55,428 nt of DNA from NCBI GenBank assembly GCA_964509695.1, contig CAZDXN010000003.1, positions 1 to 55,428 of the forward strand. The letters are read 5' to 3'. Made by a program: the position numbers and the translations under genes. The notes beneath the pieces are model-generated. The model was not told the origin of the DNA, searched no databases, and saw nothing but the letters and a program-made list of their open reading frames with translations. Each line of letters opens with the position of its first letter. Position 1 is the first letter of the stretch. Below are positions 7,643-50,916 of this stretch, piece by piece. This stretch comes from an uncultured Pseudomonadales bacterium. GTDB lineage: Bacteria > Patescibacteriota > Microgenomatia > UBA1400 > MFAQ01.

Positions 7643-8414
7643 CCGTATTTTCCCAGAGAATCTCGAACAGATCGGAAAAGGTGGCACTGATCGGAACACT
7701 GTCGATAATAGTTGAGATAATTTTGCCTTTGAGGGAGGTAATGGCTACTTTTGAGCCATAGACGATAATTTGTGAGGGAAGGAGGTACTTGGGGTTTTGG
7801 GTGATATGTCTTTCGACGAGCCTATCTTGGTCGTGAAATAGGTAGTTATTTTTGGTGTCGTCTTCTAGGGGAGTAATGGTGCGGGTATGGATATCCAACT
7901 TTATTTGAGCTCTTATTTGTTCATTGATGATTGAGTTTAATTCTTGGTTTTTGTCGTCTAAGACTGAACGGAAAAGGAGAAGATTTTTGGCTAATTTGTT
8001 TATGTCCTTGTACGTTTGTTTTATCCCCTCCAGCCCTTCAAATGAGCTAATTATCGGTCTGATTTCGGTCAGACGGTATGCGCTCTGGAGGTCGGGGAGG
8101 ATGTTTTCGAGATTGGTTTTGGCGGCTTTGGCCTGAAGCTGGATTTGCTCGGAGAGGTCGAGGAGGATGTCTGGTGAATTGGGGGTGAAAGTCGAGGCTT
8201 TGCCCGCCTTTGGCGAGGCATCGCCGGCGAGGCTGGATTTGACCAGCCCGAGTTTGGCAAGCTCCTGACTGACGGTGTAGACGTAGGTTCTTTTGACATT
8301 GGTGGACTTGGCTAGCTGGCTGGCAGATTGGGGTCCGTGGCGGAGGAGGGAGAGATAGATACTTGTCTGGTCGGCGCTCAAATTGAGGCTTTGAAGAAGT
8401 TCTTCCGGTTTCAT
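7575..8414 (-). CDS. TrmB family transcriptional regulator
   Basis: N-terminal wHTH (IYLSLLRHGPQSASQLAKSTNVKRTYVY), FEGLEGIKQ and PLD-like QIIVYGSKVAI; TTGACT-17-TATAGT promoter. Confidence 0.88.
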   Translation of the reverse strand: MKPEELLQSLNLSADQTSIYLSLLRHGPQSASQLAKSTNVKRTYVYTVSQELAKLGLVKSSLAGDASPKAGKASTFTPNSPDILLDLSEQIQLQAKAAKTNLENILPDLQSAYRLTEIRPIISSFEGLEGIKQTYKDINKLAKNLLLFRSVLDDKNQELNSIINEQIRAQIKLDIHTRTITPLEDDTKNNYLFHDQDRLVERHITQNPKYLLPSQIIVYGSKVAITSLKGKIISTIIDSVPISATFSDLFEILWENTATEHREIVSTWIQKLPKSEPAS

Positions 8415-8486
8415 CTACTTCTACTATATGTAAATACTTTCTGACAGTCAAGAGGTGGTTGAGGCTATATTTACTGTCAGGGGGAC

Positions 8487-8515
8487 TTGACAAAGCCCAT
8501 AACATATGTTATATT
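8487..8515 (+). promoter_or_regulatory. Sigma70-type promoter with a palindromic operator in the spacer
   Basis: TTGACA (8487-92), 17 bp, TATATT (8510-15); palindrome ATAACATATGTTAT at 8499-8512. Confidence 0.75.
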
Positions 8516-8521
8516 ACCGAT

Positions 8522-8897: not shown

Positions 8898-8929
8898 GTA
8901 TATCCGGCGCGAATGTTTCTCGTTATCCT

Positions 8930-8957
8930 TGTCATTCCGGACTTGATCCGGAATCTA
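8930..8957. repeat. Half palindromic element TGTCATTCCGGACTTGATCCGGAATCTA
   Basis: Same class as 189-214, 1862-1890 and 13173-13201. Confidence 0.85.
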
Positions 8958-9138
8958 TATAAATAATTTCCCAAAAAGATTGGTTGCCCGATTCGAACAG
9001 TACCTTAAAAAGTCAATTTTCTCTTTTCTTCTTTCGGAAGAACCCGGGCCGCGTGTTATCTGCGCGCCCGGGATTCTCCGGAAAAATCGATGTTTTTTAA
9101 TGCCCCAGCTGGGGCGGCCGCTAAGGAGGCGGTTTTTG

Positions 9139-12913: not shown

Positions 12914-13381
12914 ATGAGCGAGAGAATAAGAAGATTTAAGGCGGGGGAAGCGGGGAAAAGTCTGATGTCGTTGATGGCGGGGGAAATTGGTTTTGGGGAA
13001 CCGTTTGAGGATGTCAGTTCTCAGTTGGAGGCGTTGGACGAGATACAAAGGAAGTCCTTGGTCCTACTGGTGGCCTGTGACAGAATTTATGGATTTTTTG
13101 AGAATCGGGTTGGGATGGCCAATGGGCCACGTTTGGTGAAGCTGGTTCGCGACTTGGCCGGTGATCTTCATCTGTCATTCCGGCCCCCGAGCCGGAATCT
13201 AGACGAAATCGATGTCTCCAAAGAAGAGGCGAGAGCGTATTATGATGAGCTCGTGCGAATAGGCGCGATGGAATATATGGGCGAACTTGGTAGAAAGGAT
13301 GTTTTTTGCACGATTTGGGAATGTATCAACAAGATGGTGGGCGAGGAGGAATCAACTTTGGAAGAAGCCTTGCGACCTTAG
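12914..13381 (+). CDS. Hypothetical protein (155 aa) with an in-frame palindromic half-element
   Basis: TTGACA-17-TATATT promoter 8 nt before ATG 12914; TGTCATTCCGGCCCCCGAGCCGGAATCTA at 13173-13201 reads LSFRPPSRNL. Confidence 0.75.
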   Translation: MSERIRRFKAGEAGKSLMSLMAGEIGFGEPFEDVSSQLEALDEIQRKSLVLLVACDRIYGFFENRVGMANGPRLVKLVRDLAGDLHLSFRPPSRNLDEIDVSKEEARAYYDELVRIGAMEYMGELGRKDVFCTIWECINKMVGEEESTLEEALRP

Positions 13382-15616: not shown

Positions 15617-15735
15617 AATTTTTAATTTTCAGTTTTCAATTTGCAGTGAATTTCCAATTGCCCAATTTATAAATAAGTTTGAAAATTTGGGATTTGAAAA
15701 TTTTTTGGAAATTGTAAATTGATAATTGTAAATTA
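15617..15735. repeat. Two inverted heptamer arrays (TAATTTT/CAATTT.. and AAATTGT..) with no gene inside
   Basis: Left arm TAATTTT TAATTTT CAGTTTT CAATTTG; right arm GAAATTG TAAATTG ATAATTG TAAATT. Confidence 0.7.
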
Positions 15736-16260
15736 TTTTTTGATTCTGATGGCGTCGAGGGCATAGACCAGTAATTGGGCTGGAGTGGCGAGCTGACGAA
15801 CCAAGGCTTGGGCTGGAGCTTGGAGTTGGGCGAGGAGAGAGGCGAGGAGCTGTTCGCGGCTGGCCAACTTGCTGAGGACTTCAATATCCTTGATAGAGAG
15901 AATCTTGTCGTCCATTAGGCCGAGCTTGATTTCGGGGAGATTTTTGTCTTTGTCCTTGATGAATTCAGCTAGGGCTTTGGTGGTGGTGACGGCGTCGGTT
16001 TGGGCAAAGATGACGGCGGTGGGACCATTGAGGACGTCTTCGACGTCTTTGGGGAGAGTGCCGAGCTTTTCGGTGAGGGCGAGCTTTAGGAGGTTGTTCT
16101 TGGCGACCATGAATTCACCACCGGAGGTAGCGATTTTGGAACGGAGCAGGGTTTGCTCGGAGACGGAAAGGCCGGCGTAATTGGCCAGAATGACCGCCTT
16201 GGCGGTTTCTAAGCCGTGTTTGACTTCGGCGAGAGAGTGGACGTTTCTTTGACTAGGCAT
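15733..16260 (-). CDS. rplJ: 50S ribosomal protein L10
   Basis: ANYAGLSVSEQTLLR, VAKNNLLKLA, LNGPTA and LSKLASREQLLASL; directly upstream of rplL. Confidence 0.97.
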   Translation of the reverse strand: MPSQRNVHSLAEVKHGLETAKAVILANYAGLSVSEQTLLRSKIATSGGEFMVAKNNLLKLALTEKLGTLPKDVEDVLNGPTAVIFAQTDAVTTTKALAEFIKDKDKNLPEIKLGLMDDKILSIKDIEVLSKLASREQLLASLLAQLQAPAQALVRQLATPAQLLVYALDAIRIKK

Positions 16261-21964: not shown

Positions 21965-22900
21965 TTAGAGGCTGGAGAGGTCAAGTTTTACGGATGGGGT
22001 TTGGTTGGCGGTAAGATAGGCAGTGGTGATTTTGGTCAAGCCGATTTCTTTGAGAAGTGCGGTGAGATTGCCGGTCAGTTCGTCAACCTTTTGACTGGTT
22101 TTGCCAAGGCTGACGTGGATGATGGGGAACTTCGGCTCGGTTTTGTAGGTAATCGTAGCCCCGGCGGAGAGCTGTTTGGCCCGGCCTTCTGGGTCGGCAG
22201 TGACTGTGCCGCTCTTGGGATTGGGCATCAGGCCTTTGGGGCCTAGAATCTTGGCGTAGCGAGCTAGTTTGGGCATGTCTGCCGGGGTAGCCAGAAGAAC
22301 ATCGAAGTTAAATTCATTGTTGTTTAGGGCGGTGACGGTTTTGTCGGAGAATATTTCGACGCGAACATTCTTGCCGGTAGAGAAGGGGGTTTTAACTTCA
22401 CCGCGAAGACCGGTGTCGATGACGTTTAGATGAAGGTCGATGGTTCTAGTTCCGCCGGCGAGGGAGATTAGCTTTTCGAGAGCGACTTTTGGAGCCAGAA
22501 CTTCATTACTCTTGATTTTTTTAGCGAGGATTTTGTAGCGCTTCGAGCGGCCGTAGATGTGGCTGGGGTACTTGGCGAAGTGGCTGGTGGAGATTACGGG
22601 TGCGTCATCCTCGCGAACGCGGGGATCCATACTATCTGTATAGATTCCCGATCGGGTCGGGAATGACAAAGTAGATTGCTTCGTGGGTACACTCCCTCCA
22701 GAGGCGGGCTTTGGCGCAATGACGGGGGAGTAGGTGACGTGAACTTTTTCCAGATCGGCATCGGAAAGGCCAAGGGCGAGGAGTTCGCCGTCAGTTTTGG
22801 CGGTGAGCTGTTCGGGCTTGACGCGCTTCTCACGAAGAACCTTAGCGATATTTTCCGGCAAATCTTGATATAGTTCTTTCCAATTCGTTCTAGTTGCCAT
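21965..22900 (-). CDS. rplA: 50S ribosomal protein L1 with a ~115-aa N-terminal extension
   Basis: RGEVKTPFSTGK, FDVLLATP, ILGPKGLMPNPKSGTV; directly downstream of rplK. Confidence 0.95.
   Translation of the reverse strand: MATRTNWKELYQDLPENIAKVLREKRVKPEQLTAKTDGELLALGLSDADLEKVHVTYSPVIAPKPASGGSVPTKQSTLSFPTRSGIYTDSMDPRVREDDAPVISTSHFAKYPSHIYGRSKRYKILAKKIKSNEVLAPKVALEKLISLAGGTRTIDLHLNVIDTGLRGEVKTPFSTGKNVRVEIFSDKTVTALNNNEFNFDVLLATPADMPKLARYAKILGPKGLMPNPKSGTVTADPEGRAKQLSAGATITYKTEPKFPIIHVSLGKTSQKVDELTGNLTALLKEIGLTKITTAYLTANQTPSVKLDLSSL
22604..22723. repeat. 120-bp palindromic elements in-frame inside rplA
   Basis: GTCATCCTCGCGAACGCGGGGATCCAT..TAGATTCCCGATCGGGTCGGGAATGACA plus AGATTGCTTCGTG..GCGCAATGAC. 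Confidence 0.85.
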
Positions 22901-27354: not shown

Positions 27355-28068
27355 ATGGCGCGAGGAAATGGGAGGGAACACCAACAGAGGAGACCAGAGC
27401 GAGAGAATTACCATGGTGTTTGGCAGGGAGGAGGGGGGACTTATGATGCCGCAAAGATAGAAGAGAGGCGAGCGAGAGCGCGGGTCATGGCGCGAAATAA
27501 TACTCCCGAGACTGAGGCTATAAATGAAGAAAGCACTCGGGCGGTGGTGGAGGTATTGCGCCGGAAGGATCTGTTTCCTTGGATAGAATCGGTGGAGCTG
27601 GAGGAGGATCGATTGGGGGATGATGACTGGGTTAGGAAGACAGATGCCTATGTGAACATTGCTCCGGAATTTGGTAGGTTGGGTTTGCTTGATCAGTATC
27701 GGATTCAGATTAAGTCGGGTTGGAGCGATCTTTCAGGATTGGGAAATAAAAATATCAAAAAATTACTTTCTTTGACTAGCAAAGAATGGCGGGAATTGGG
27801 CTTGGTAATTTTGTTTGGCCAGGCGACCTCGGAGGCCATTGCCGCCAGTTTTTGTGATCAAATGATAAATTACATGGAAATAGCCGGAATTAGAAATGCC
27901 CGACAGGAATTCTTCAGCCAGCAAACGCCAGACCTGCAGAAAATAATGGTTCAATATGAAGCCTTGGATATTGCCGGACGCGATTGGGCGGTGCTTTTGT
28001 CTTGGATTACAGGGAATCCCAGAAGAGTGGAGAGAACCCAAGGGGGCGGTCAGGTCGTCTTTTTGTAA
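27355..28068 (+). CDS. Hypothetical protein, PD-(D/E)XK nuclease-like fold
   Basis: E.STRAVVEVL, DD..RKTD and IQIKS motif order; TAAAAT is 6 nt before the ATG. Confidence 0.65.
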   Translation: MARGNGREHQQRRPERENYHGVWQGGGGTYDAAKIEERRARARVMARNNTPETEAINEESTRAVVEVLRRKDLFPWIESVELEEDRLGDDDWVRKTDAYVNIAPEFGRLGLLDQYRIQIKSGWSDLSGLGNKNIKKLLSLTSKEWRELGLVILFGQATSEAIAASFCDQMINYMEIAGIRNARQEFFSQQTPDLQKIMVQYEALDIAGRDWAVLLSWITGNPRRVERTQGGGQVVFL

Positions 28069-29093
28069 TTGGCAGCTAGTTGGCCGCAGGCGGCGTTGAT
28101 GTCCGTGCCGAAGTCTTGGCGGAGGGTGTGATGGATTTTGTTTTGGGTGAGAACAGCTTGGAATTTCTCAACGACAGAATTAGTTGGCTTTTGGAAGGCG
28201 GTTAAAGTGTTGCCGTTATTGTATCTAATGAGGTTGACGTGGAGGAGGCGACGGCGGTCTGGGGTAGTGCAGACGAGGTTGGCAAGTGCGGTGGCGTGTC
28301 TGACGCTGTCATTGACATCTTTGAGGAGGATGTAGGCGAGGAAGACTTTGCGGTTGGTGACGGCCAGATGCTGGTCGATGGCGGCCATGACCTTCTCGAT
28401 GGGGTAGGCGGTGGTGATGGGCATGAGTTTGGCGCGTTCATCATTGAAGGGGTTGTGGAGGGAGAAGGCGAGATTGACGTTGGGGTAGTCGGCTGTGAGT
28501 CTCTCGATGCCCGGAATGATGCCAACAGTGGAAATGGATAAGTGACGTGGGGAGAGGCCGAGGAGGTCTTTGTTCGTCATCAGGTCGATGGCGGCGAAGG
28601 TATTGGCAGGATTGGAGAAAGGCTCGCCCATGCCCATGAAGATAATTGAGTCGACGGGTAGGCCATTTTTCAGAAAGTAGAGGACTTGGTCGAGAATTTC
28701 GTCGGCGGTGAGGTTTTTCCGAAAGCCGATGGCACCGGTGGCGCAGAAGAGGCAGCCGAGGGCACAGCCGGATTGGGTGGAGATGCAGAGGGAGTGGTGA
28801 ATACCGGATTTGAGTTTGTAGGAGAGTCGGACCGATTCGATTTGGTGATGGTCGGCAGTTTCAAAGAGGACTTTGTGGGCTTGGTCACCGCGGGTTTCGC
28901 GGACCAATTTTAGAGTGAGAATATCATCACCAAGGGTGTTAATTATTTGCTCTTTGAGATCTTTGGGAAGGTTAGATATTTGGCTGTAGCGGCTAATTTT
29001 GGCGGAAAAAATTGCCTCCTTTATTTGTTCGAAACGGAATTTGGGTTGATTGTTTTCGGTGAGAATGGATTGAATGGTGTCAAGTCTGGTCAT
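28050..29093 (-). CDS. rlmN: RlmN/Cfr family radical-SAM 23S rRNA A2503 methyltransferase, Cfr-like
   Basis: CISTQSGCALGCLFCATG, MGMGEP and AACGQL; start MTRLD (29093). Confidence 0.93.
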   Translation of the reverse strand: MTRLDTIQSILTENNQPKFRFEQIKEAIFSAKISRYSQISNLPKDLKEQIINTLGDDILTLKLVRETRGDQAHKVLFETADHHQIESVRLSYKLKSGIHHSLCISTQSGCALGCLFCATGAIGFRKNLTADEILDQVLYFLKNGLPVDSIIFMGMGEPFSNPANTFAAIDLMTNKDLLGLSPRHLSISTVGIIPGIERLTADYPNVNLAFSLHNPFNDERAKLMPITTAYPIEKVMAAIDQHLAVTNRKVFLAYILLKDVNDSVRHATALANLVCTTPDRRRLLHVNLIRYNNGNTLTAFQKPTNSVVEKFQAVLTQNKIHHTLRQDFGTDINAACGQLAANYKKTT

Positions 29094-29116
29094 ATTTATT
29101 TGCGGCTGAATTTGGT

Positions 29117-29150: not shown

Positions 29151-29157
29151 GGTGCTC

Positions 29158-29469
29158 CTATTTTTGGGGAGCTTTTCCCTCATGGAGGTGGAGGTCCATG
29201 TATGAAGCGGGCCTAATTTCCACAAGGTATTCAACCTGGTCTGCGGGCACGTCGTAGTACCAGGTAAAATACGACGCACTTGCGCTAAAATCTCCATCGA
29301 CGGTGCTAACCGTCAGTTCTGCACGGTTCCCTTCGGCGGCCCAGGTCTTGATGACCAACTCCTTGGTCGTCGGGTCTGCCTGGTGAACTATGCTGTTGCT
29401 GCTGGAGCAGGCCGCCGCCAGCAGGGCGCCGATTACAACAACTAACAGAAAACTAATTTTTGTGCGCAT
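29158..29469 (-). CDS. Small lipoprotein
   Basis: AAGGAGG SD; signal peptide ending in a LAAAC lipobox. Confidence 0.8.
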   Translation of the reverse strand: MRTKISFLLVVVIGALLAAACSSSNSIVHQADPTTKELVIKTWAAEGNRAELTVSTVDGDFSASASYFTWYYDVPADQVEYLVEIRPASYMDLHLHEGKAPQK

Positions 29470-29533
29470 TTGCGCCTCCTTTTTAAAGTTCAATCTTGCG
29501 ATTGTAGCCTATATTATACACCAATTGTAAAAT

Positions 29534-37670: not shown

Positions 37671-37781
37671 TGTCATCGCGAGGGAGCGATAGCGACCGTG
37701 GCGATCCATATAGATTGCCGCACGCGTGTACCTGCCCCAATCGCTGCGCTCAAGGCGTTGCAGGCGGGCGCTCGCAATGAC
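37671..37781. repeat. Complete GTCATCGCGAG..GCAATGAC palindromic element with a nested insert
   Basis: TGTCATCGCGAGGGAGCGATAGCGACCGTGGCGATCC..GATTGCC..CTCGCAATGAC. Confidence 0.85.
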
Positions 37782-37786: not shown

Positions 37787-38749
37787 CTAGAGGGATTTGT
37801 AGAGGATTTTTTTGGTGGCGGCGTCGATTTGGACGACGAAGGGTTGACTGTTGTCGCCGGATTTGAAGCTGATTTGCCAGAGGGTGGCGCTGGACCTGTC
37901 CTGAGCGGAGCCGAAGGGCTTTATATATTGACCGGAAATAGAGGTGGTGGTGCAGTTGAAGGTTGTAGGGCAGACAGCGGTGGAGATGCTCACGGCCTCA
38001 GGCAGATCGATACCCAGCTGAGAATTGGCAGCAAGCTGGTTAAGTGAAGGGGTGAGGGTGTTTTCGGCGACGGTGACTTGCTGGTCAACGACGACGAGGT
38101 CTTTGTTTGGTTCGGCCATGACGTAAAGATATTTTTTGTCCGTAGGGGTCTGTCTGAACCAGTATTTGATGACGGCGAGGGTTGGATCCTGAAAGTTCTC
38201 GGTTTTGATCATGATGAGTTGAGCGGATGGGTATTGTTTTTGAGCGGTGGCGATGACTGTCTGAATGTCGCCAAAAACTTTTCCGGTGGCACTGGCTGTA
38301 GCGGTTGGAGAAGGAGTGGTAATAGGCGTCTGTGTGATGGTCAGGTTAGGGGCGGGGGTTTGAGTCGGGATAATCTGATTTTCTTTGATTTGCTGCTGTT
38401 GCATGGTTTGGGTGATTTGGGTGAGCTGGGCGTTGAGACTCTTGGTTTGTTGGTAGAAGAAGTAGGTGGCGGCGATGGCGCCAATTGAAATAAGAAGAAG
38501 CAGGGCGGTGACGACGGGGAAGGGTTTTCTGGCCGATGTGGGCATGGTCGCGGGAATCTGAGCCGCTGGTTCCGGGGCTATTACCTCAATGGGTTCTGGG
38601 ACTGAATTGGGAATCTCCTCAATTATGGGCTGTGCCGAAAGATCCGCCGATTTGGCGGACAGGTCAGGAGCGACGGCATCAGTGAGTTGGATTTCGGGGG
38701 TAGTTTGGACAGGCTGAGGGAAAGACCCCGTGGTTGGATCGTTGGGCAT
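37787..38749 (-). CDS. Membrane-anchored hypothetical protein with a PepSY-like C-terminus
   Basis: TM helix, Q/T/P linker, WQISF..VVQIDAATKKIL; two in-frame palindromes at 37895-918 and 38642-60. Confidence 0.8.
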   Translation of the reverse strand: MPNDPTTGSFPQPVQTTPEIQLTDAVAPDLSAKSADLSAQPIIEEIPNSVPEPIEVIAPEPAAQIPATMPTSARKPFPVVTALLLLISIGAIAATYFFYQQTKSLNAQLTQITQTMQQQQIKENQIIPTQTPAPNLTITQTPITTPSPTATASATGKVFGDIQTVIATAQKQYPSAQLIMIKTENFQDPTLAVIKYWFRQTPTDKKYLYVMAEPNKDLVVVDQQVTVAENTLTPSLNQLAANSQLGIDLPEAVSISTAVCPTTFNCTTTSISGQYIKPFGSAQDRSSATLWQISFKSGDNSQPFVVQIDAATKKILYKSL

Positions 38750-38781: not shown

Positions 38782-39396
38782 TCAAGAGAGGTTGAGATAG
38801 AGGTTGTCGCCGATGACGGTGGATTTGATATCGGAGAAGCCAGTTTGTTTGGCTAGATTAGCCAGTTCGTCGGCGGTGAAGGAATAAAAATCGCGGGAGG
38901 GACCGGAGTGGAAGGGAATTGACAGGTGTTTTGAGTTGGTGCGAAAACGGTCGAACTTGGGTTGGTCCAGACGCCAGACAGAAATGAGACAGGAGCCAGT
39001 TGAATTGAGATGCTGCTTTATATTTCGGAGTAGTTTGATGTGGTCGTCTGGGGAGGGGAGATGATGAAAGACGGCGAGAGCGGCGACAAAATCGAATTGC
39101 CCGAGTTCGTCCCAAATGGACTGGTCAAGAATGTCAGCCAGAATGAATTTGCCTACAGGGTCAGACCCCGTAGCTTCTTTGATGAGAACGGCGCTGAAAT
39201 CGAGGCCGGTGTAGGTGACGGTTTTGGGTAGGGCCGTTAGGAGGACGCCATTGCCGCAGCCCAGATCGAGGACGGAGGCGTTTGATTCGAGTTTGGGAAG
39301 CAGAGGAATCACCTCCGGCGACAATTTCTGTCTGGTTGCGCTAAAATTAAGGCCGATTTGGTCGTACGTAGAGGCGATTTTTTGTGAATCAAACAT
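38782..39396 (-). CDS. Class I SAM-dependent methyltransferase
   Basis: VLDLGCGNG, YTGLDFS, FDFVAALAVFHH; TATAAT is 7 nt before ATG 39396. Confidence 0.92.
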   Translation of the reverse strand: MFDSQKIASTYDQIGLNFSATRQKLSPEVIPLLPKLESNASVLDLGCGNGVLLTALPKTVTYTGLDFSAVLIKEATGSDPVGKFILADILDQSIWDELGQFDFVAALAVFHHLPSPDDHIKLLRNIKQHLNSTGSCLISVWRLDQPKFDRFRTNSKHLSIPFHSGPSRDFYSFTADELANLAKQTGFSDIKSTVIGDNLYLNLS

Positions 39397-40861
39397 GAAA
39401 CATATTATAAAGCCAGTGATAAAGCCGGGGCGGTCGATGTCCGGGGTGACGCCGCTGGCGGCGATGATGAAGCCGTTCAATTGTCCGGGGGAGTGTATCT
39501 ACTGCCCGCTGGAGTTAAACATGCCCAAGAGCTACCTTTCGGACGAACCGGCGGCTCAGAGGGCGAAGAAACTGAATTTTGACGCCAGGGCCCAGATCTC
39601 CCAGCGGTTGGAACAACTGAAGATGAACGGCCATCCGACGGACAAGCTGGAGATTATCGTGGTTGGGGGAACGTACTCGGCTTACCCGACCGATTACAAA
39701 ATTTGGTTTATTGGCGAGATTTATCGAGCCGCAAACGAAACAAAAAGACCTCTCCCTCTTCTCCCCCAATTACCTCACCCCACCCCTCCCCTTGATAAGG
39801 GGAGGGAGAAGAGGGAGAGGTGTGAGTGGGAAGAGAAGGTTTTGGCTGAAATAAAAATAAATGAAACTGCCAAACAGAGAATCGTAGCTCTTTCTGTAGA
39901 GACTAGACCTGATTGGGTGACTGAGGCTGAAGTGCGACTACTGCGAAGGCTAGGAGTGACGAAGGTCCAGCTGGGAGTACAGGCGATTGATGAAGAAATC
40001 AGTCGGATCACCAAGCGGGGGCACGGACAAGCCGAAGTGGCCGAGGCGACCAGACTCTTGCGGAATGCGGGGATGAAGATTTGCTATCACATCATGCCGA
40101 ATCTACCCGGAAGTGATCCGAAGAAAGATGTCGAGATGGCAAAACTAATCTATACCGACCCCCGGTTCATGCCAGACTACGTCAAGCTTTATCCCTGTAT
40201 GGTGATCAAGGGAACGGCCTTGTATCGACTGTGGCAGAAGGGGCAATTCAAAACCTATGACGATGAAACCTTGAAGAAGGTCCTCAAGGAAATCAGCGCC
40301 ATTACTCCCGAGTGGGTCAGAGTCGACCGGCTGATACGGGACATCTCAAAAGGTTGGGTGGGGGCAGGAAGCGTCAAAACGAACATGAGACAGGAAGTAG
40401 AACGGGAGTTGATTGCCGAGGGGAGACCTTGTCGGTGTATTAGATGTAGAGAAATTGGAGCAGGAAGTTACGAAGATACGAATTTAGAATTTAAGGCGAT
40501 TGAATTAGCAACAATTGGGGGGAGGGAAGTGTTTTTTAGTTACGAGAATGAACACAAATTGTTTGCACTCCTTCGCCTGCGACTGCCTGACCCTTCAGAG
40601 AAGATGTTGTTTCCGGAATTAAAAGAGGCGGCGATCGTTCGGGAGGTTCATTCTTATGGTCAGGCGGTGCCGCTGTCGACCCGAAGAGAAGGCAAATCTC
40701 AACACCAAGGTTTGGGGCGGCTTTTGATGGAGAAGGCCGAGGAGGAAGCGGTCAAAAACGGGTACAAAAAGTTGGCGGTCATTGCCGCCGTTGGGACGCG
40801 GGAGTACTACAAAAAATTGGGCTATGTCTTGGAAGGCTTATATATGGTGAAGACGTTCTAG
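39395..40861 (+). CDS. elp3: Elp3 family tRNA U34 acetyltransferase (radical SAM plus GNAT)
   Basis: CPGECIYCP, GHPTDKLE, SVETRPDW, VQLGVQ, RVDRLIRD, CRCIRCRE, REVHSYG and QHQGLG; palindromic insert at 39749-39826. Confidence 0.94.
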   Translation: MKHIIKPVIKPGRSMSGVTPLAAMMKPFNCPGECIYCPLELNMPKSYLSDEPAAQRAKKLNFDARAQISQRLEQLKMNGHPTDKLEIIVVGGTYSAYPTDYKIWFIGEIYRAANETKRPLPLLPQLPHPTPPLDKGREKRERCEWEEKVLAEIKINETAKQRIVALSVETRPDWVTEAEVRLLRRLGVTKVQLGVQAIDEEISRITKRGHGQAEVAEATRLLRNAGMKICYHIMPNLPGSDPKKDVEMAKLIYTDPRFMPDYVKLYPCMVIKGTALYRLWQKGQFKTYDDETLKKVLKEISAITPEWVRVDRLIRDISKGWVGAGSVKTNMRQEVERELIAEGRPCRCIRCREIGAGSYEDTNLEFKAIELATIGGREVFFSYENEHKLFALLRLRLPDPSEKMLFPELKEAAIVREVHSYGQAVPLSTRREGKSQHQGLGRLLMEKAEEEAVKNGYKKLAVIAAVGTREYYKKLGYVLEGLYMVKTF

Positions 40862-42393: not shown

Positions 42394-42396
42394 AAA

Positions 42397-42428
42397 ACGA
42401 AGGTACGAATATACGAAGTTAGGAATGA
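42397..42428. repeat. 8-mer tandem array, left arm
   Basis: ACGAAGGT ACGAATAT ACGAAGTT AGGAATGA. Confidence 0.85.
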
Positions 42429-42431: not shown

Positions 42432-42806
42432 ATGAGTTACGATAAAATTCAGAGTTTTCGAGATTTGCTTGTTTGGCAACAGGCTCACCAGTTGGTACTA
42501 TCGATATACAAAACAACAAAGACTTTTCCTCGGGAGGAAATGTACTCATTGGTCGATCAGATTAGGAGAGCGGTTGTGTCTGTAACCAGCAACATAGCCG
42601 AGGGTTTTGGCAGGAGGTCTTACAAGGAAAAATTACAGTTTTATAATCTAGCTATGGGTTCGTTGACGGAGGTTGAGAATCAAATTGATATCAGCCACGA
42701 CCTCGGATATATTTCTCGAGCATCATATGACGAATTCGTTGAGAGAATATTGTCGGTGAAAAAGTTACTTAATCGTTTAATGACGGCTACGAAATCTTAT
42801 TCGTAG
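42432..42806 (+). CDS. Four-helix-bundle protein (23S rRNA IVS protein / bAvd-like family)
   Basis: FRDLLVWQQAH..FPREEMYSLVDQIRRAVVSVTSNIAEG..FYNLAMGSLTEV. Confidence 0.95.
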   Translation: MSYDKIQSFRDLLVWQQAHQLVLSIYKTTKTFPREEMYSLVDQIRRAVVSVTSNIAEGFGRRSYKEKLQFYNLAMGSLTEVENQIDISHDLGYISRASYDEFVERILSVKKLLNRLMTATKSYS

Positions 42807-42836
42807 ATTCGTATATTCGTGAATTCGTAACTTCGT
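42797..42836. repeat. 8-mer tandem array, right arm (inverted relative to the left arm)
   Basis: TTATTCGT AGATTCGT ATATTCGT GAATTCGT AACTTCGT. Confidence 0.85.
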
Positions 42837-42842
42837 TGGCTT

Positions 42843-43436
42843 TTAGCCGAGGAGGAGGTGCGAGATAAAGGCAATAGCGGGGGAAATCAGAGAGATCACT
42901 GGAGACGTGCCGAAGAGGGGGAGAATCATGAAGATGAGGATGATGGTGCCGTAGCGGCTCATGACGGCTTGATATTCGTAGGCAAGATCGCGAGGAAGGA
43001 TGGCGGCGAGGATTTTCTCACCATCAAGAGGATAGACGGGGACGAGATTGAAGATGGCCAGGGAGATATTCAAAATAATGACGGCGTAAAAAAAGGGAAA
43101 AAGGTAAATTGGCAGAGGGAATAGTCGAAGGCCAAGACTAAGAAGAATGGCCAGAAGGAGATTACTGGCAGGACCAGCGATGGAAATGATTCCGGCGTCG
43201 CGTCTAGGGTGGGCGAGGTTGTATGGGTCGAAGATAACAGGCTTGCCCCAACCGAAGTGAACCAAGAAAAGCATGAGTGTCCCCAAGGGGTCAAGGTGGG
43301 CGAGAGGATTTAAGGTGAGCCGGCCTTGTGACCGCGGGGTGGGGTCACCCAGCCGATCGGCGGCCAGAGCGTGAGAGAACTCGTGGATGGTGATAGCGAT
43401 GACGAGTCCAAAAACCAGATAAAGTGTTTCAACCAT
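42843..43436 (-). CDS. Site-2 protease family (M50) membrane metalloprotease
   Basis: IHEFSHA, NPLAHLD, AGPASN and FNLVPVYPLDG. Confidence 0.95.
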   Translation of the reverse strand: MVETLYLVFGLVIAITIHEFSHALAADRLGDPTPRSQGRLTLNPLAHLDPLGTLMLFLVHFGWGKPVIFDPYNLAHPRRDAGIISIAGPASNLLLAILLSLGLRLFPLPIYLFPFFYAVIILNISLAIFNLVPVYPLDGEKILAAILPRDLAYEYQAVMSRYGTIILIFMILPLFGTSPVISLISPAIAFISHLLLG

Positions 43437-45211: not shown

Positions 45212-45958
45212 ATGGCAAGAATGGGTGAGTGTCTCGATCCGTATGGGGGATGTTGTGGAATTTGGAGTCATGAATTGGTTGGGGATTTTCCGGGGTATTT
45301 GCGGGTAGAAGCCTTTGGTGGGGAGTGGTCGGTGACGTATCTTAATGAAGAAGCGGGTTGGATGTCTGGAATAGCCTGGTCGTCCGAAGGCATTGTCATT
45401 GCTTCCGACGATCCTGTGGTGAAGTGTCATTACGATTTGAATGGTGAATTGGTAGCGGTGAAATTGGGACTCACTTCGCTGGTGAATCGTTTTGCGGAGC
45501 AAGGGATGGATCCGCATTTGGTTAATCAAAGTGACTGGAGTAGGCTAATCGATCTCGCCGACGCGGGAGATGAAATAAAGTTGGTTGTATTCTTCGGGGA
45601 TGATGAGTTTTCTCCCTATTGGTGTCTTTTGAGAACAAAGATCGGTCAGGAAAGCGGAGAGGCTTTAGAAGTTCAGGTGATCGATCGGATTTTGATGAAC
45701 CTTAGTGTGGGGAATGATGAACCCCTATTTGTCCGACCTTTGGGAGGATTTGATTTAAAATTTCGGTTGTTGATTGATGAAGGCGAGATGCGTTTTGGAG
45801 TGGTTGGTGAGGAGGACGAAGTTCCGGATCTAGTCATTCGACGGAATGTGGATTTTACCAACCTTAGAAATAGGATTCGATTTGACCGGGAAGCAAAGTG
45901 GCGGGATCTAAATAGCACTCTTGGTCGGGTCAGTTCGGCTTTGAAATTGTTGCCATGA
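45212..45958 (+). CDS. Hypothetical protein, tandem paralogue 3
   Basis: YDLNGEL and AGDEIKLVVFF; TAGAAT-6-ATG. Confidence 0.8.
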   Translation: MARMGECLDPYGGCCGIWSHELVGDFPGYLRVEAFGGEWSVTYLNEEAGWMSGIAWSSEGIVIASDDPVVKCHYDLNGELVAVKLGLTSLVNRFAEQGMDPHLVNQSDWSRLIDLADAGDEIKLVVFFGDDEFSPYWCLLRTKIGQESGEALEVQVIDRILMNLSVGNDEPLFVRPLGGFDLKFRLLIDEGEMRFGVVGEEDEVPDLVIRRNVDFTNLRNRIRFDREAKWRDLNSTLGRVSSALKLLP

Positions 45959-46927
45959 GATGGGGGTTTTGCCGGGAAGTTGAACTAGATCAATTTTCAA
46001 TTTACAATTTTTAATTTTCAAATAATTTTCAAGAGAGGTTCGAATAATTTTCAATTCAAGATTGCCAATTTTCGTCCAGGCGCCGGGATCGGGATTCAGT
46101 GAACGAATCAATGCATGAATTCGTTCACATTTGACATTGCTCATTTGACATTGCTCATTTGACATTTGAGATTTTTCAAGACATGGTTTTATTTCTTCCC
46201 AGGGGATGAAGGCGGATTGGCGGTTTCTGGTTTTGGTGGTAGAGGTGTAGGTGGCGAGGGTTTCGTTTTGGTGGGTTAGAAGAACCTCACCCCGTCCCTC
46301 CCCTTGATAAGGGGAGGGAGAAGAGGGAGAGGTAAGTGAGGATATTTTGGGAAGGTACTCGGCGAGGAGTTTAATGCCGCCTTGGGTAAGTTTGTTCGTC
46401 AGAGTTTCACAATTGTCGTTTATATCAATACTAACTTTTTCTTGGGAAATGATTGGTCCGGTATCCATTCCCTCATCCATAGCCATCAGGGTGACGCCGG
46501 TTTCGGAGTCCTGATTTTTGATCGCCTCGCTGATACACAGGGCGCCGCGGTATTTGGGAAGCAGAGAAAAGTGGAGGTTAAAGGTGCCGATAGTGGAAGC
46601 GGTCAACCAAGGCTTTGGAATGATCTTGCCGTAACTGACGACGAGAAAGAGATCGGGTTTTAGGAGTTTGAGGTGGGCCAGGTTTGCCTCGTCGAGTTTC
46701 TCGGGTTTGAAAACTGGGAGATTGTATTCGGTAGCGAGTTGGGCGACGGGAGACGGAGTCAGGATTTGTTTCCGACCGAGGGGTTTGTCGGGTTGTGTGA
46801 CTACCCCCGCGAGGCAGAAAAGGACCCCCTCTTTATCTCCCCCTTCGCTAGGGGGAGAGTTTTTTATTAGGGATTCGAGGATTTCGGCGGAGAAGGCGGG
46901 AGAGCCGAAGTAGACTAGGTTCGTCAT
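45908..46927 (-). CDS. fmt: Methionyl-tRNA formyltransferase with several repeat-derived inserts
   Basis: VVTQPDKPLGR, VVSYGKII, NLHFSLLPKYRGA, MDEGMDTGPI and IRSLNPDPGAW. Confidence 0.96.
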   Translation of the reverse strand: MTNLVYFGSPAFSAEILESLIKNSPPSEGGDKEGVLFCLAGVVTQPDKPLGRKQILTPSPVAQLATEYNLPVFKPEKLDEANLAHLKLLKPDLFLVVSYGKIIPKPWLTASTIGTFNLHFSLLPKYRGALCISEAIKNQDSETGVTLMAMDEGMDTGPIISQEKVSIDINDNCETLTNKLTQGGIKLLAEYLPKISSLTSPSSPSPYQGEGRGEVLLTHQNETLATYTSTTKTRNRQSAFIPWEEIKPCLEKSQMSNEQCQMSNVKCERIHALIRSLNPDPGAWTKIGNLELKIIRTSLENYLKIKNCKLKIDLVQLPGKTPISWQQFQSRTDPTKSAI

Positions 46928-47490
46928 AGGTTGATTGGCGAGAGGCCGTTTTCAGTTTCGCACAGGATTTGGCCCTTTTGTTCGATAATCCGGTCAGTGA
47001 AGAGGATGCCGTTGAGGTGATCGATTTCGTGCTGGATGTAGGCGGAGGAGACGTCACTGAATTCTTCAGTGACAGTTGACAGTTGACAGTTGACAGTTGA
47101 CAGTATGGGTATTTGGTATTGGAGTTTGATGGAGTAGGGACGGTCGACGAATCCCCAGATCTTGGGGATGGAGAGACAGCCTTCGAGCCAGCGGTCCTTC
47201 TTCTTTTTGTAGACGGAGCTAAGCATTTTCTGACTGATGGTGATGATTTCGGGGTTAATGAAGACCTTGGTGGTTTGTCTTTCCTCATCAAGGAGAATAA
47301 AGAGGCGTTTGTCGAGGCCAACTTGAGTGGCGGCCAGACCAACGCCCTTGGGATTGGTGGTGTGTTTGAGGATTTCTGCCATTTGGGCCACTTCTTTGGC
47401 GGTTTTCTTGTCCCAACCACGAATAGGCTTGGCCTTGTGCTTTAGGAATGAATGGGGTGTAGTCAGAATCTGCATATGGTCAGTTTTCAT
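46924..47490 (-). CDS. def: Peptide deformylase
   Basis: GVGLAATQVG, EGCLSIP and QHEIDHLNG; (GACAGTT)n insert at 47071-47105. Confidence 0.97.
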   Translation of the reverse strand: MKTDHMQILTTPHSFLKHKAKPIRGWDKKTAKEVAQMAEILKHTTNPKGVGLAATQVGLDKRLFILLDEERQTTKVFINPEIITISQKMLSSVYKKKKDRWLEGCLSIPKIWGFVDRPYSIKLQYQIPILSTVNCQLSTVTEEFSDVSSAYIQHEIDHLNGILFTDRIIEQKGQILCETENGLSPINL

Positions 47491-47887: not shown

Positions 47888-48133
47888 CTAGTCTCTTTGT
47901 TTTCTGATTAGATTTATAGCCGAGTCTGACAACTTGACGCGAAGGGATTCTGGGTAGTCGGCTAGCATTTTTAGAGTTTGTCGATGGGGGGACATCCCTT
48001 TCTGCTTTGTTTTAATTACCAAGTCAGCGCCTTTTCTTATCAATTCCGACAAGCTAACGTTTTCGATCTTTGCCAAGTTTATTAGGTTGGCGTGCGTTTC
48101 TTCCGGTAGATATATTTGGGTCCTAGTCATCAT
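47888..48133 (-). CDS. CopG/RHH antitoxin
   Basis: RTQIYLPEE..LAKIENVSLSELIRKG; TTGACA-17-TAATAT-6-ATG. Confidence 0.88.
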   Translation of the reverse strand: MMTRTQIYLPEETHANLINLAKIENVSLSELIRKGADLVIKTKQKGMSPHRQTLKMLADYPESLRVKLSDSAINLIRKQRD

Positions 48134-48211
48134 AAATTAATATTAATGTATACATCACTATTTGTCAATAATCGCACCATTGACTTATAGTACAGGCGAA
48201 CTTAGAATCGG

Positions 48212-48985
48212 ATGATGGAGAAATTGTTGGAGCAAAGATGGGGGAGGGTAATGCGCTCACCCGAAGAGGTGTCAATGATTACCGATTTGGCTTGCGATCT
48301 GTGTGGAGGCGATGAGATGGAGGCGGAGAAACTGATTCATCGGGTATTATTTGAGATGCACAACCGGACTTGGGGTCTCAGCCTTCATGAGGGTGATCAG
48401 GACCAGCCGTTGGTGGAGACCAAGATGGTTTGCGAATATTTGAGGTTGGCGGTTGAGAGTCAGAGACCTAGCGATTTTCGGAAGTTGACCGAGAGGGCGG
48501 TGAATTTGGCGGCCAAGCGGCCTCACCAGATTTTGTTGTATCGATCGATGGTTCATGAGATGGGTGGGGAGAGAGAAGTAAGAGCTTTTGAGAAAGCGTT
48601 GGTTTCGGTGGGAGCGCATCTACCTCCGTTGGATGACGAAGACGTTCAAATTTATCAGAGGTTGGTCGGCAAGTCTTATTGGGAACTGGACTTGGATATG
48701 CTAAGACGGGTCTTTATATCAAATTTTTTGGCTTGGAAAGTTGGTATGCTCAAATTTGAGGAATTGGAAGAAGAGGAGATTCGACAATCGGAATTTCAAG
48801 CGGAAGTTTCGGTTTTTCTGACTGGAGTTCGGGCTGAGTTGAGACGAATAGCTAGGGTGATTGTGGCGAAAAAGGCCGTACCCGAAAGGAAGACGCCGGG
48901 ATTTTTCAGGAAGGAAATAGATGAGGATGATGATTCGACAGACGTAGGGATTGATATGGAGACGGCGCGGTCGTTTCTGGATTAG
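48212..48985 (+). CDS. Hypothetical protein (257 aa)
   Basis: Helical, acidic C-terminus; TAGAAT just upstream. Confidence 0.75.
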   Translation: MMEKLLEQRWGRVMRSPEEVSMITDLACDLCGGDEMEAEKLIHRVLFEMHNRTWGLSLHEGDQDQPLVETKMVCEYLRLAVESQRPSDFRKLTERAVNLAAKRPHQILLYRSMVHEMGGEREVRAFEKALVSVGAHLPPLDDEDVQIYQRLVGKSYWELDLDMLRRVFISNFLAWKVGMLKFEELEEEEIRQSEFQAEVSVFLTGVRAELRRIARVIVAKKAVPERKTPGFFRKEIDEDDDSTDVGIDMETARSFLD

Positions 48986-50916
48986 TTTTTGGTGAGAGTT
49001 TTGAGGGAGGCGCGGGCGGCATCGTAGTCGGGCTTCAAATTGATGGCTTTTTGGAAATATTTTTTGGCGGAATCGTTTTTTCCGGTGCTTTGGTAGAGCA
49101 GGCCGAGGTTGTAGGCGACCTTGGCGTCGGTGGGCGAGAGCTCGAGGAGGTTTGTAAGTGTCTGAATGGCTTCTTGATTATATTTAGGGTCAATAGTACC
49201 AAGATAAAGTTCGACCTTGGTTCGGCTTTTGTAATAATTCCCTTGGTATGGATTCATGGCGATGGCTTTGGTGGAGTTTGTGTCTGCCTGAATAATAAGA
49301 TCATTCATCAGTTGGACTGCTCCCGGTTTGTCAACCTGGCTTTTGATAGATGAAGCGGCCATGGCTTGGGCTTCGGCCAATTGCGCCCAGAAGAGGGGTT
49401 CGTCAGGAGAAATTCGGACGGCTTGTTCGAGATAGTCTAGGCTGGGCTTTAGGAGCTGTTGGTTGAGAGTTTGTTTGCCGCGGTTGTAGGCAAGGTCGGC
49501 CCTCCATTGGTTGACGGGGATTAATAGTAAATAAATGGTAATTAATAGTAATAGGGGGAGAGATAGCCATTGATTGATGTGGAAGTTGATAGATAGATGC
49601 TTTTCGATGGTGTCGCTATTGACTGAGGCGATGGCGGGGAAAAGAAAAAAGAAAAGGGCGACCGGGACGACCGAGAAGCCAAAGTAGTTGGTGATCATGA
49701 TGCCGAGATAACCAAAAAATAGAGGCTCGGGCCAGAGGAGCAAGAGGGAAGCGAGATTTAGAAAGAGATAGGTGGCGAGGCCGAAGAAGCCGGTGTTGGC
49801 TAGAGTATTGAGATATTCGTTGTGGGCTTTGTTGTAGAGGAATTCCCACTCGGAAAGGAGGTTGTGGATGGCGGGGCGGACTGAGAAATAAGAGTAGCCA
49901 AAGGTTTCGACGCCGGAACCAAAAAGAGGATTCCTCTTGGCTAGTTCCCGAGCTCCTTGCCAGACGACCTGACGAATAATCAGGGAGTCGGAGCCGCCGA
50001 TGCGCTGTTTCTTGTCCTGAACGACGAGCTGGTCCAGATTGGGAGGTCCGAGGGGGCTAATTTTTTGGAAGAAAGACCATTTGGAAGCGACCAAGAAAAT
50101 AGCAAGGGTGATGAGGGGAAGTGACATGAGTAACTTTTGGTAATTTGAGGTAATTGGTTGTAATTTTTTGACTAAGAAATAGACCAACATGGCGGCGAGA
50201 ACGACGGCGGTCGCGCCGAGGCCGGATTGGGATTTGGTGAACCAAATGGTGAGGAGGAAGAGAGTTGTCAGTAGGCAGTTGACAGTGATCAGTTTTTTGG
50301 TCTTGGCTTTGACGGCGAGGAAGATGGGGAGGGGGAGGAGAGCGACGAGATAGGCGGAGAGCCAGTTGGGCTGACCAAGGGTGGAAAAGACGCGGTTTTG
50401 GACGTCTTGAACCCAGAGCGACTTGTCGATACCGAAGTGCTCGGCGATTCCGTAGAGCGAGACCAGGGTGGCCGATGAAAGAATTGAAATGAGGACAAAT
50501 TTGATTTTGTAAACCTCTCCCTCGGACTCCCTCCCCTTGGTAAGGGGAGGGATGGGGTGAGGTGACATGTTGGTGACAAAAGCATAATAGAGAACGATGT
50601 AGGAGATGGTAGACATAAGCCCGCCGTGGAAGCGGGAGTAGTAGCCCCAGAGGCTGGTGTGAGTGTCGATGCTGAAAATAGTTGACAGAATCTGAGAAGC
50701 TAAGAAGAGAAGAATGGGAAGATCGAGGGGGGTGCGGCGGATGGTGATTTTCTTTTGGTTGATCCATTTGACTACCCAGGCGGCGGAGATGAGGATAGTT
50801 AGGACGTAGACGAGGAGCATTTTGTTGAACTCAAAGACCTCGGAAGTACCCGGCCAGAGGACGAGGGGGATGAAAAAAAAGAGGGCGTAGAAGAGGGACT
50901 CGATCAGCTTTGACAT
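48982..50916 (-). CDS. O-antigen ligase family polymerase with C-terminal TPRs
   Basis: RVFSTLGQPNWL, TKSQSG, PLFGSGVETF, KAHNEYL and C-terminal TPR helices; palindromic insert at 50513-62. Confidence 0.93.
   Translation of the reverse strand: MSKLIESLFYALFFFIPLVLWPGTSEVFEFNKMLLVYVLTILISAAWVVKWINQKKITIRRTPLDLPILLFLASQILSTIFSIDTHTSLWGYYSRFHGGLMSTISYIVLYYAFVTNMSPHPIPPLTKGRESEGEVYKIKFVLISILSSATLVSLYGIAEHFGIDKSLWVQDVQNRVFSTLGQPNWLSAYLVALLPLPIFLAVKAKTKKLITVNCLLTTLFLLTIWFTKSQSGLGATAVVLAAMLVYFLVKKLQPITSNYQKLLMSLPLITLAIFLVASKWSFFQKISPLGPPNLDQLVVQDKKQRIGGSDSLIIRQVVWQGARELAKRNPLFGSGVETFGYSYFSVRPAIHNLLSEWEFLYNKAHNEYLNTLANTGFFGLATYLFLNLASLLLLWPEPLFFGYLGIMITNYFGFSVVPVALFFFLFPAIASVNSDTIEKHLSINFHINQWLSLPLLLLITIYLLLIPVNQWRADLAYNRGKQTLNQQLLKPSLDYLEQAVRISPDEPLFWAQLAEAQAMAASSIKSQVDKPGAVQLMNDLIIQADTNSTKAIAMNPYQGNYYKSRTKVELYLGTIDPKYNQEAIQTLTNLLELSPTDAKVAYNLGLLYQSTGKNDSAKKYFQKAINLKPDYDAARASLKTLTKN

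Follow-up and report, generated by a model that had tools for sequence, protein, structure and literature searches.

Short hairpin-forming repeats lie in frame inside protein-coding genes at nine sites of a 55,428-nucleotide (nt) stretch of contig CAZDXN010000003.1, from an uncultured bacterium of the Candidate Phyla Radiation (CPR, Patescibacteria); this whole stretch is the window of our analysis. The genes that carry them encode uL1 (rplA), Fmt, Elp3, a Wzy-type (O-antigen-ligase-like) ligase, a TrmB-like regulator and two open reading frames (ORFs) of unassigned function, named here by their first coordinate (Table 1). An earlier note, written from the letters of the DNA alone, had placed palindromes of several families in frame in these genes, read in different frames and on both strands, and the sequence confirms this: all nine sites are where the note had put them, in continuous ORFs. 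That note saw in the repeats a hint of an active protein-loop-innovation system. We think it probable instead that they are selfish or neutral hairpin repeats which spread and are filtered by purifying selection, the inserts in proteins being a by-product with no dedicated device behind them.

In-frame insertions in functional genes

Relative to some orthologues or solved structures, all nine segments are insertions that keep the reading frame, as had been supposed, and they add 7-40 residues. Among close relatives (65-92% protein identity) some have the inserts, others lack them and others again have different elements in the same loops, and this mixture of presence and absence indicates that repeat turnover is recent and continuing. 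The host genes are functional and under purifying selection: their ORFs are intact, and dN/dS against relatives is 0.09-0.21 in elp3, rplA, fmt, ORF37787 and ORF12914, which is not the picture of pseudogenes that the earlier note had allowed for. Its description of the hosts as essential was loose, as uL1 and Fmt are important yet dispensable in E. coli. That the inserts are assembly errors at repeats, or mark decaying genes, is a negligible prospect. The source is a short-read metagenome-assembled genome (MAG), and the window differs from GenBank contigs by indels of 105 and 9 nt, but both differences lie away from the elements, the ORFs are intact at the dN/dS values just given, and independent assemblies from other samples (L099, L101, L104, L105 and L106) share inserts, which are therefore no assembly artefacts.

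In DNA folding of the nine sites, seven gave hairpin z values of -2.4 or below. The 120-bp composite in rplA has a whole-fold z of -1.67, yet its single units contain clear hairpins, while the insert ORF37787a is itself no palindrome (z -0.14). The elp3 site has a hairpin z of -5.24; there the window has 120 nt and two relatives 91-92% identical to it (L103 and L104) have 36 nt, a net gain of 84 nt or 28 codons; about 28 residues are likewise extra relative to PDB 5l7j. The ORF translations give ANETKRPLPLL in Elp3 and YSPVIAPKPASGG in uL1 as the peptides at insert junctions. The elp3 flanks are themselves diverged: they differ from L103 at 12 of 29 residues, the remainder of the protein at 25 of 430 (Fisher p = 2e-7), while L103 and L104, both without the insert, differ from each other at 1 of 30 flank positions. 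Local flank divergence is likewise present at the rplA and ORF12914 elements. A frameshift followed by restoration was rejected for the elp3 flanks, whose DNA aligns with the orthologue in no frame; recombination patches, error-prone repair or compensatory change are possible sources of the divergence.

Two sites lie in fmt. The first (fmt_a) holds 15-16 residues that are missing from the orthologue in L003, the sole useful relative from a scan of genome contigs with Fmt, and has a hairpin z of -4.78. In L104 the same site holds another insert, (GCCATTC)x4, at about 1190-1230. The second (fmt_b, z -2.42) corresponds to a 12-residue gap in PDB 4iqf; the B-type composite that L104 has here is fuller, and the L003 insert is longer and unrelated. 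The C-terminal domain of L104 Fmt contains a further in-frame element, an inverted doublet of GTCAT hairpins (CHPGLDPGSIQIDSGSEAGMT). Residues are gained in frame from tandem repeats too: a 14-nt repeat at 46133-46166 of fmt gives 12 amino acids, and a run of GACAGTT heptamers at 47057-47104 of def gives 6, all missing from L003. Slippage is a second source of insertions in the fmt and def genes.

The insert in the O-antigen-ligase-like gene (z -4.28) adds 16 residues that are missing from the L003 orthologue. The element in ORF12914 (z -4.5) has BLAST matches in the intergenic segments 1862-1892 and 54988-55017; it is present in the window and L101 and missing from the L099 and L100 orthologues, with a net gain of 15 nt. 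ORF37787a is a clean insertion relative to L103, is identical in L104 and L105, and occurs in 3 of 15 homologues; a full-length intergenic copy of its type, GTCATCCTGAGCGNAGCCGAAGGAT, lies in L100 at 6667-6692. The 7-residue insert ORF37787b (z -3.84), also found in 3 of 15 homologues and missing from the other 12, sits at a point where the homologues P0121 and P0129 have other inserts. In the TrmB-family regulator, a 7-residue insert (z -2.69) is shared by the window and P0171 only and is missing from 13 of 15 homologues; its nucleotide sequence is ~89% conserved in L106. The AlphaFold2 model of this protein (mean pLDDT 88.8) gives residues 65-70, between the wing strands 58-63 and 73-78, a pLDDT below 50.

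The rplA case is one of disordered-linker turnover by element-derived sequence and not of simple insertion. Microgenomates uL1 has a conserved helical N-terminal domain of ~57 residues, then a variable linker, then the L1 body, whose fold begins at about ORF residue 119, and the AlphaFold model gives the whole linker (residues 60-116) a pLDDT of ~30. The two inserts that were modelled, this one and that at the TrmB wing tip, are thus both predicted to lie in disordered or low-confidence segments. Linker length is roughly constant, the whole protein having 290-311 residues. The late beginning of the L1 fold would allow a true start codon beyond the elements, a reading that we ruled out: the 311-residue ORF is covered to 98-100% by 120 homologues, all 120 listed reach across the N-terminal domain, and the 120-bp segment therefore is truly within the rplA coding sequence.

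Three units make up this segment. Unit 1 is at the DNA level GTCATTGCG...GCAATC with a nested inner hairpin, and its layout is like that of the intergenic copy at 3643-3697; its inner 21 nt are present in the window and L102 and missing from L099. Unit 2, which has census, pattern and intergenic BLAST matches, also occurs in L099 and is missing from L100, L101 and L102. Together with unit 3, also a census match, it forms an inverted doublet like a REPIN (a doublet of the REP repeats discussed below). L099 keeps units 2 and 3 and lacks the inner hairpin of unit 1, L102 has two different units, and L100 and L101 (80% identical) have no elements, only an ordinary K/E/Q-rich linker. Among other homologues, P0004, P0005 and P0019 have VIPSAVEESS-type linkers, and P0005 and P0019 carry other units including ...IPPRADTLGRDD. 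The 40-residue insert, searched against a library of 1.8 billion proteins, returned one spurious tandem-repeat protein, the query being too short. A scan of metagenome contigs for L1 was swamped by the conserved KGLMPNPK pattern and gave no close relatives; its loci served as background for element counts. In uL1 of Microgenomates/Collierbacteria (rplA 21965-22900 in the window) the conserved N-terminal domain has the pattern MATRTNWKELYQDLPENIA..LREKRVKPEQLT.KTDGE.LALGLSD.DLE, followed by a disordered linker of 40-60 residues. An ARAGORN call of tRNA-Leu(AAG) at 22369-22464, inside rplA, has no Rfam support and is probably a false positive.

Repeat classes and their copies between genes

The units are ~20-60 nt long and multi-copy, with composites of up to 120 nt. 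The largest class, class 1, has the asymmetric frame (T/C)GTCAT - stem - loop - stem - ATC(C/T)A(T/G), or in general 5'-HGTCAT, a variable stem-loop and ATC(C/T)AT-3', in fixed orientation. Its stems differ (ATTCCG.., ATTCCC.., ATCCTG.., ATCGCG.., ATTGCG..), and its units occur singly, as inverted doublets (188-250 and 22604-22669 in the window; 1492-1552 in L104), nested in one another (1786-1838, 3241-3298 and rplA unit 1) or in mosaic intergenic arrays. A strict search for GTC + [AT-stem...loop...stem-AT] + C found 18 elements against 1.2 expected from shuffles; ~16 of these look genuine, and all ~16 begin (T/C)GTCAT. Three of them are in coding sequences, where there are also several degenerate copies. 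The arrangement GTCATTCC-N8-14-GGAATC occurs seven times in the window against none expected. More generally, perfect hairpins with stems of at least 8 bp number 29 against 5.4 +/- 2.5 in shuffles; the window is ~85% coding, and 13 of these hairpins are in coding sequences and 16 in the 15% that is intergenic.

Class 1 resembles in architecture the NTS repeats of Neisseria (CGTCATTCCCGCGMAVGCGGGAATCYRG), which contain dRS3, and the degenerate Ssn-related motif (SRM, HGTCWY...RNCYNB) (Chenal et al. 2025, PMC11893778). GIY-YIG nucleases of the SsnA family bind and cleave these sequences in single-stranded form; binding depends critically on the C that directly follows the palindrome, and cleavage on the three bases upstream (PMC11893778). 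Class 1 units fit the SRM 5' flank HGTCWY directly before the palindrome and, on the 3' side, the hairpin of ~20-50 nt, the immediate C and the RNCYNB flank, ending as they do in ...AT-C(C/T)A(T/G). By this architecture we assign them to the NTS/SRM type, and an association with Ssn enzymes is putative, by analogy with Neisseria. Exact copies of the 25-nt NTS core are present in two sister Collierbacteria loci (L104 and L105), one Thermodesulfobacteriota MAG and a further metagenome contig, and a 26-nt hairpin of the window, GTCATTCCGRCCYCCGAGCCGGAATC, is exact in seven IMG/VR contigs of 47-68% GC. Identical or near-identical GTCAT-type hairpins, often as inverted doublets, are also found in L107-L113 (IMG/VR contigs flagged as viral), L005, L006 and L020, and in Thermodesulfobacteriota MAGs. 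As judged from these matches, the GTCAT hairpin class is common to very distant genomes.

Class 2 comprises two families of nested C-rich/G-rich palindromes. Family A has the layout ACCTCACCC-spacer-CCCTCCCCTT-GATA-AAGGGGAGGG-spacer-GGGAGAGGT and three intergenic and three coding copies, 85-98% identical; those in elp3 and fmt_a match at 47 of 49 positions, in opposite orientations relative to their genes. In ~90 kb of sister loci there is no family A except a short variant in L101, a near-absence that suggests a lineage-specific burst, and its core had no match in a scan of viral contigs. Family B is a CCCCCTC... three-stem composite found at 1895-1957, 55042-55065 and fmt site b. On paper the intergenic composite (1895-1957, 55018-55080) folds as a three-way junction, with the outer stem ATCACCCCC/GGGGGTGAT and the inner hairpins GATCG-AATA-CGATC and CCCCCTCTTAA-AT-TTAAGAGGGGG. 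Finally, three segments are CCGCC-loop-GGCGG mini-hairpins: the inserts of TrmB and ORF37787b, and the hairpin nested in rplA unit 1. BLAST in the window gave dispersed relatives for none of them.

The earlier note held that the palindromes in genes are the same as those between genes. At five sites (ORF12914, rplA unit 2, elp3, fmt_a and the O-antigen ligase) BLAST within the window bears this out. For fmt_b and ORF37787a, intergenic or fuller relatives are found just in sister loci or as a related family, and for the TrmB and ORF37787b mini-hairpins no dispersed sequence relatives were found.

The intergenic arrays also turn over. Unit composition beside tRNA-Arg differs in the sister locus L101. 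Between mreB and the PD40/PEGA gene the window has a spacer of 445 nt made of elements and L101 one of 44 nt, even though the genes on either side are 86-93% identical in nucleotide sequence. The composite at 1862-2008 is 96-99% identical over ~150 nt to that at 54988-55130. Two mreB paralogues (2097-3113 and 53876-54940; ~46-50% identical) each adjoin this composite, which is upstream of one and downstream of the other.

Table 1. Repeat elements in genes and intergenic arrays of the window
Feature	Position	Strand	Gene or setting	Element and reading
Mosaic array	156..340		beside tRNA-Arg	three NTS/SRM-type units (one inverted doublet), family A, A-like mini-hairpin
Mosaic array	1674..2075		between PD40/PEGA gene and mreB	~six NTS/SRM-type units, family B three-stem composite, family A
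Two intergenic arrays	3227..3796 (3227-3436, 3643-3796)		intergenic	NTS/SRM-type units and family A
TrmB insert	8202..8230	-	TrmB-family winged helix-turn-helix regulator, gene 7575-8414; wing tip	mini-hairpin, LAGDASPKAG
Lone unit	8929..8960	+	intergenic	NTS/SRM-type; census and pattern match
ORF12914 insert	13173..13201	+	ORF 12914-13381	NTS/SRM-type hairpin TGTCATTCCGGCCCCCGAGCCGGAATCTA; read as LSFRPPSRNL
rplA unit 3	22603..22630	+	rplA linker, opposite to gene	inverted GTCATCCTC...GGGGATC unit; read as MDPRVREDD
rplA unit 2	22639..22669	-	rplA linker	TTGTCATTCCCGACCCGATCGGGAATCTATA, read as LSFPTRSGIY; GTCATTCCC...GGGAATC unit
rplA unit 1	22672..22723	-	rplA linker	GTCATTGCG...GCAATCTAC element with nested CCGCC-loop-GGAGG hairpin
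Intergenic unit	37671..37722	+	downstream of ORF 37787-38749	NTS/SRM-type; census, BLAST
ORF37787a	37895..37918	-	ORF 37787-38749	24-nt insert PFGSAQDR; truncated copy of GTCATCCTGAGCGNAGCCGAAGGAT type
ORF37787b	38640..38660	-	ORF 37787-38749; disordered N-terminal region	mini-hairpin SAKSADL (TCCGCC-AAATC-GGCGGA)
elp3 insert	39749..39826	+	gene 39395-40861	family A nested palindrome; read as PLPLLPQLPHPTPPLDKGREKRERCE
fmt_a	46285..46333	+	gene 45908-46927, minus strand; interdomain linker	family A palindrome; reverse reading TSPSSPSPYQGEGRGEV
fmt_b	46824..46859	-	fmt; turn between helix 1 and strand 2	family B palindrome CTCCCCCT-loop-AGGGGGAG...; read as NSPPSEGGDKEGV
O-antigen-ligase-like (Wzy_C/TPR) insert	50513..50562	-	gene 48982-50916	family A; read as PHPIPPLTKGRESEGEV, frame as in elp3
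Intergenic array	54988..55169		after mreB-2	duplicate of 1862-2008 composite and one further unit

Probable selfish or neutral repeats, and the rival explanations

Under the account we prefer, the repeats would multiply and turn over fast, and most copies would collect between genes. A copy within a gene would persist only if its net length change is a multiple of three, if the frame read has no stop codon and if it sits in a tolerant loop, linker or disordered tail; surviving copies would presumably be translated as part of the protein. Our best guess for copying, by analogy with NTS-ssnA-NTS and with the REP repeats and their RAYT enzymes, is a single-strand, hairpin-dependent process, which an Ssn-type GIY-YIG or HUH-type enzyme encoded elsewhere could drive in trans. 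For part of the pattern, patches of recombination or transformation that carry the element are a live alternative route, and they would also account for the diverged flanks. In Neisseria, too, genes adjoining dRS3 have reduced identity (PMC11893778).

Several findings weigh against this account. Three batches of Pfam searches and motif scans found no nuclease or transposase in the window or in ~90 kb of sister loci. The earlier note had reported this absence for the window, and it extends to the particular enzymes of interest: an Ssn gene (cd10448, GIY-YIG_unchar_3), which such repeats typically flank, was found neither in the window nor in the sister loci, whether with Pfam or with motif scans; when the window and all loci were translated in six frames and scanned for the GIY-YIG motif, there was no match; and no window gene matched Y1_Tnp (RAYT) in Pfam; the window also has no insertion sequence (IS). 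We therefore infer mobility and the copying step from the distribution of copies only. The sole clean junction, that of ORF37787a, has no target-site duplication, and the events in rplA, ORF12914 and elp3 resemble replacement with diverged flanks and not simple insertion. The Neisseria NTS has no window match at three or fewer mismatches. The published degenerate SRM pattern has one match in the window (22603-22630, inside rplA) against 0.22 expected, and thus fits just 1 of the ~16 class 1 units; most copies miss this narrow pattern because their stems differ. Lastly, for the mini-hairpins of TrmB and ORF37787b BLAST within the window returned no dispersed relatives; a local origin is possible for them.

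A local origin may be considered for some or all of the inserts, above all for the 21-nt mini-hairpins: replication slippage or template switching would have made quasi-palindromes in place, and the inserts would not be mobile copies. Besides those two orphan hairpins, the nested hairpins and the 21-nt inner indel of rplA unit 1, the replacement-like junctions and the active slippage evident in the in-frame tandem and heptamer repeats of fmt, def and L104 fmt are in keeping with such an origin. However, copies of families A and B and of the GTCAT class are scattered over unlinked sites in both orientations and are 85-98% identical, an identical 26-nt hairpin occurs in unrelated genomes, and the asymmetric conserved flanks GTC...C are unexpected from palindrome genesis. 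We consider local origin unlikely.

We hold it to be less plausible still, and quite improbable, that the elements form an adaptive system, kept for the new functional protein segments they provide, with insertion into loops targeted or selected. Relatives have been hit repeatedly at the fmt helix 1-strand 2 turn, the fmt interdomain linker, the uL1 linker and the ORF37787 N-terminus, but such recurrence is expected from tolerance alone. The TrmB insert is kept in two lineages just 58% identical, and the burst of substitutions at the elp3 flanks could be adaptive refitting. Against this, the modelled inserts fall in segments predicted to be disordered, with low pLDDT, close relatives manage without inserts and most copies are intergenic. 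Moreover, the reading varies. For class 1 units it uses each of the three forward frames (VIA.../VIPS...; LSFRPPSRNL/LSFPTRSGIY; CHPGLDPGS) as well as two reverse ones (MDPRVREDD; IDSGSEAGMT), and for family A both orientations; nor is any insert peptide conserved. This variety favours selfish repeats over a purpose-built system. What stands of the loop-innovation proposal is therefore a recent and ongoing process, as the relatives' presence and absence of inserts indicates, and not a system for innovation.

The inserts might also be removed or bypassed before they reach the protein, in the manner of introns, programmed bypass or inteins, leaving the proteins unaltered. Insertions in the rRNA genes of CPR bacteria are well known, and strong hairpins could act as processing signals. 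Yet every insert is in frame and free of stop codons, which would be needless if it were removed, and indels inside elements are multiples of three, such as the 21 nt in rplA unit 1. There are no splicing or intein motifs, and Rfam, at the gathering threshold and, on 3100-4400, at an E-value threshold, returned tRNAs and noise only. We regard removal or bypass as very improbable.

Relation to known repeats and surrounding sequence

The selfish or neutral repeats that we favour recall several known systems, first of all the Rickettsia palindromic elements (RPE) to which the earlier note had compared them. RPE-1 to RPE-10 are ~100-150 bp long, with a conserved peptide per family (Ogata et al. 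2000 Science 290:347, as summarised in PMC10969869). As far as that summary describes them, the likeness holds in that there are several palindromic families, intergenic and in frame within unrelated housekeeping genes at fold-compatible positions, with no linked transposase known, with presence differing between related species and with a reduced-genome symbiont or parasite as host. It does not hold for unit size, which is three to five times smaller here (21-60 nt, with composites to 120 nt), or for the family peptide, which is lacking here; the repeats of the window also differ in their many frames, nested or mosaic build, NTS/SRM-type flanks and CPR host. Judged from size and the NTS-type flanks, homology to RPE sequences is unlikely.

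With NTS, dRS3 and SRM repeats the elements share flanks, hairpin size, the C after the palindrome, fixed orientation, mosaic arrays around genes and wide spread among phyla (PMC11893778), although their stems are more varied than the published SRM pattern admits. In N. meningitidis 2% of NTS lie inside genes (PMC11893778), whereas here 3 of ~16 strict matches, and further copies, are in coding sequences. The main text of PMC11893778 makes no mention of CPR. Repetitive extragenic palindromes (REP), with their REPIN doublets, REP-associated tyrosine transposases (RAYT) and bacterial interspersed mosaic elements (BIME), of enterobacteria and pseudomonads, offer another parallel: short hairpins with an asymmetric flank, inverted doublets forming a longer hairpin, and mosaic intergenic arrays. 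REPs are believed to spread by way of an enzyme encoded in a single copy, which works in trans on hairpins of single-stranded DNA. However, the flank here is GTCAT, with no GTAG-type tetranucleotide, the window has no RAYT (Y1_Tnp) gene, and REPs are by definition extragenic, whereas the elements here are also intragenic. Intragenic MITEs (transposable elements of miniature size with inverted repeats) such as ERIC, BOX, Correia and those of Anabaena (PMC10969869) resemble the elements here: they are small and non-autonomous, and their read-through can give in-frame fusions with extra peptide segments. What sets MITEs apart is a parent IS, whose terminal inverted repeats they have, and duplication of the target site; neither feature is seen here.

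In the literature that we searched, palindromic or MITE-like repeats are not reported from CPR genomes or coding genes, nor are NTS/SRM-type repeats from CPR. RPE-like selfish DNA within genes is known; what is new is the CPR host, the NTS/SRM type of the elements, their small size and nesting, and the diverged flanks. "Selfish DNA inside protein genes" has long been linked with Rickettsia; the window would extend it to another class of repeat and to a remote lineage with a reduced genome, from groundwater, and would place NTS/SRM-type repeats, recently tied to Ssn nucleases, in CPR genomes and their coding regions.

CPR proteins and rRNAs are known for unexplained insertions. The window offers one concrete, datable source of some of these, namely short hairpin repeats that would be read by the ribosome. 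NTS/SRM-type repeats have so far been known as intergenic partners of the Ssn single-strand nucleases that modulate transformation in Neisseria. It is a tentative possibility that these repeats are a major, ongoing source of lineage-specific protein insertions in CPR, entering via single-strand recombination or transformation patches. Such entry would explain the hyper-diverged flanks and a presence and absence that departs from the phylogeny and, if true, would link DNA uptake, hairpin repeats and the insertion-rich proteins of CPR. If the flank divergence does reflect recombination patches, the elements would mark hotspots of gene exchange. In practice, the repeats give rise to segments of low complexity, particular to a lineage, by which gene calling, homology search and MAG assembly can be misled, and the presence or absence of elements could serve as a fine-scale strain marker.

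The window belongs to a Microgenomates MAG, probably of Candidatus Collierbacteria as judged by the sources of its best homologues. It also contains secE-nusG-rplK-rplA, rplJ-rplL, def-fmt, a bacterial elp3, the Wzy_C/TPR ligase-like gene, two mreB genes and many toxin-antitoxin pairs. It corresponds to GenBank assembly GCA_016183355.1 and joins three GenBank contigs, including JACPEU010000062.1 (window 1438-27290, reversed) and JACPEU010000004.1 (from window 27246), which overlap by 45 nt. Relative to GenBank contigs it has 105 nt more at the 3' end of an M50 peptidase gene (42828-42932) and lacks 9 nt (GGGGTCCTG) inside tRNA-Thr(GGU) at 36404; neither difference is at an element. The M50 peptidase gene is split in L099, and element insertion was rejected as the cause, since the split is a 1-nt frameshift.

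Distinct from the hairpin repeats are A/T-rich intergenic runs with a 7-8-nt period (TACGAAT/TAGGAAT/TAAGAAG; AATTTTC/AATTGTA) at gene ends, at 4330-4350, 5204-5252, 15617-15737, 42394-42426, 42799-42834 and 45992-46073. A gene at 42432-42806 encodes a four-helix bundle of the 23S_rRNA_IVP/bAvd type, a family resembling accessory proteins of diversity-generating retroelements; the window has no reverse transcriptase. Upstream of a radical-SAM gene (ORF 28050-29297), ~500 nt (29097-29533) stand against ~80 nt in L102 and include a hairpin with a 12-bp stem at 29117-29150. The 415-residue radical-SAM ORF is probably over-extended relative to its 350-residue orthologue.

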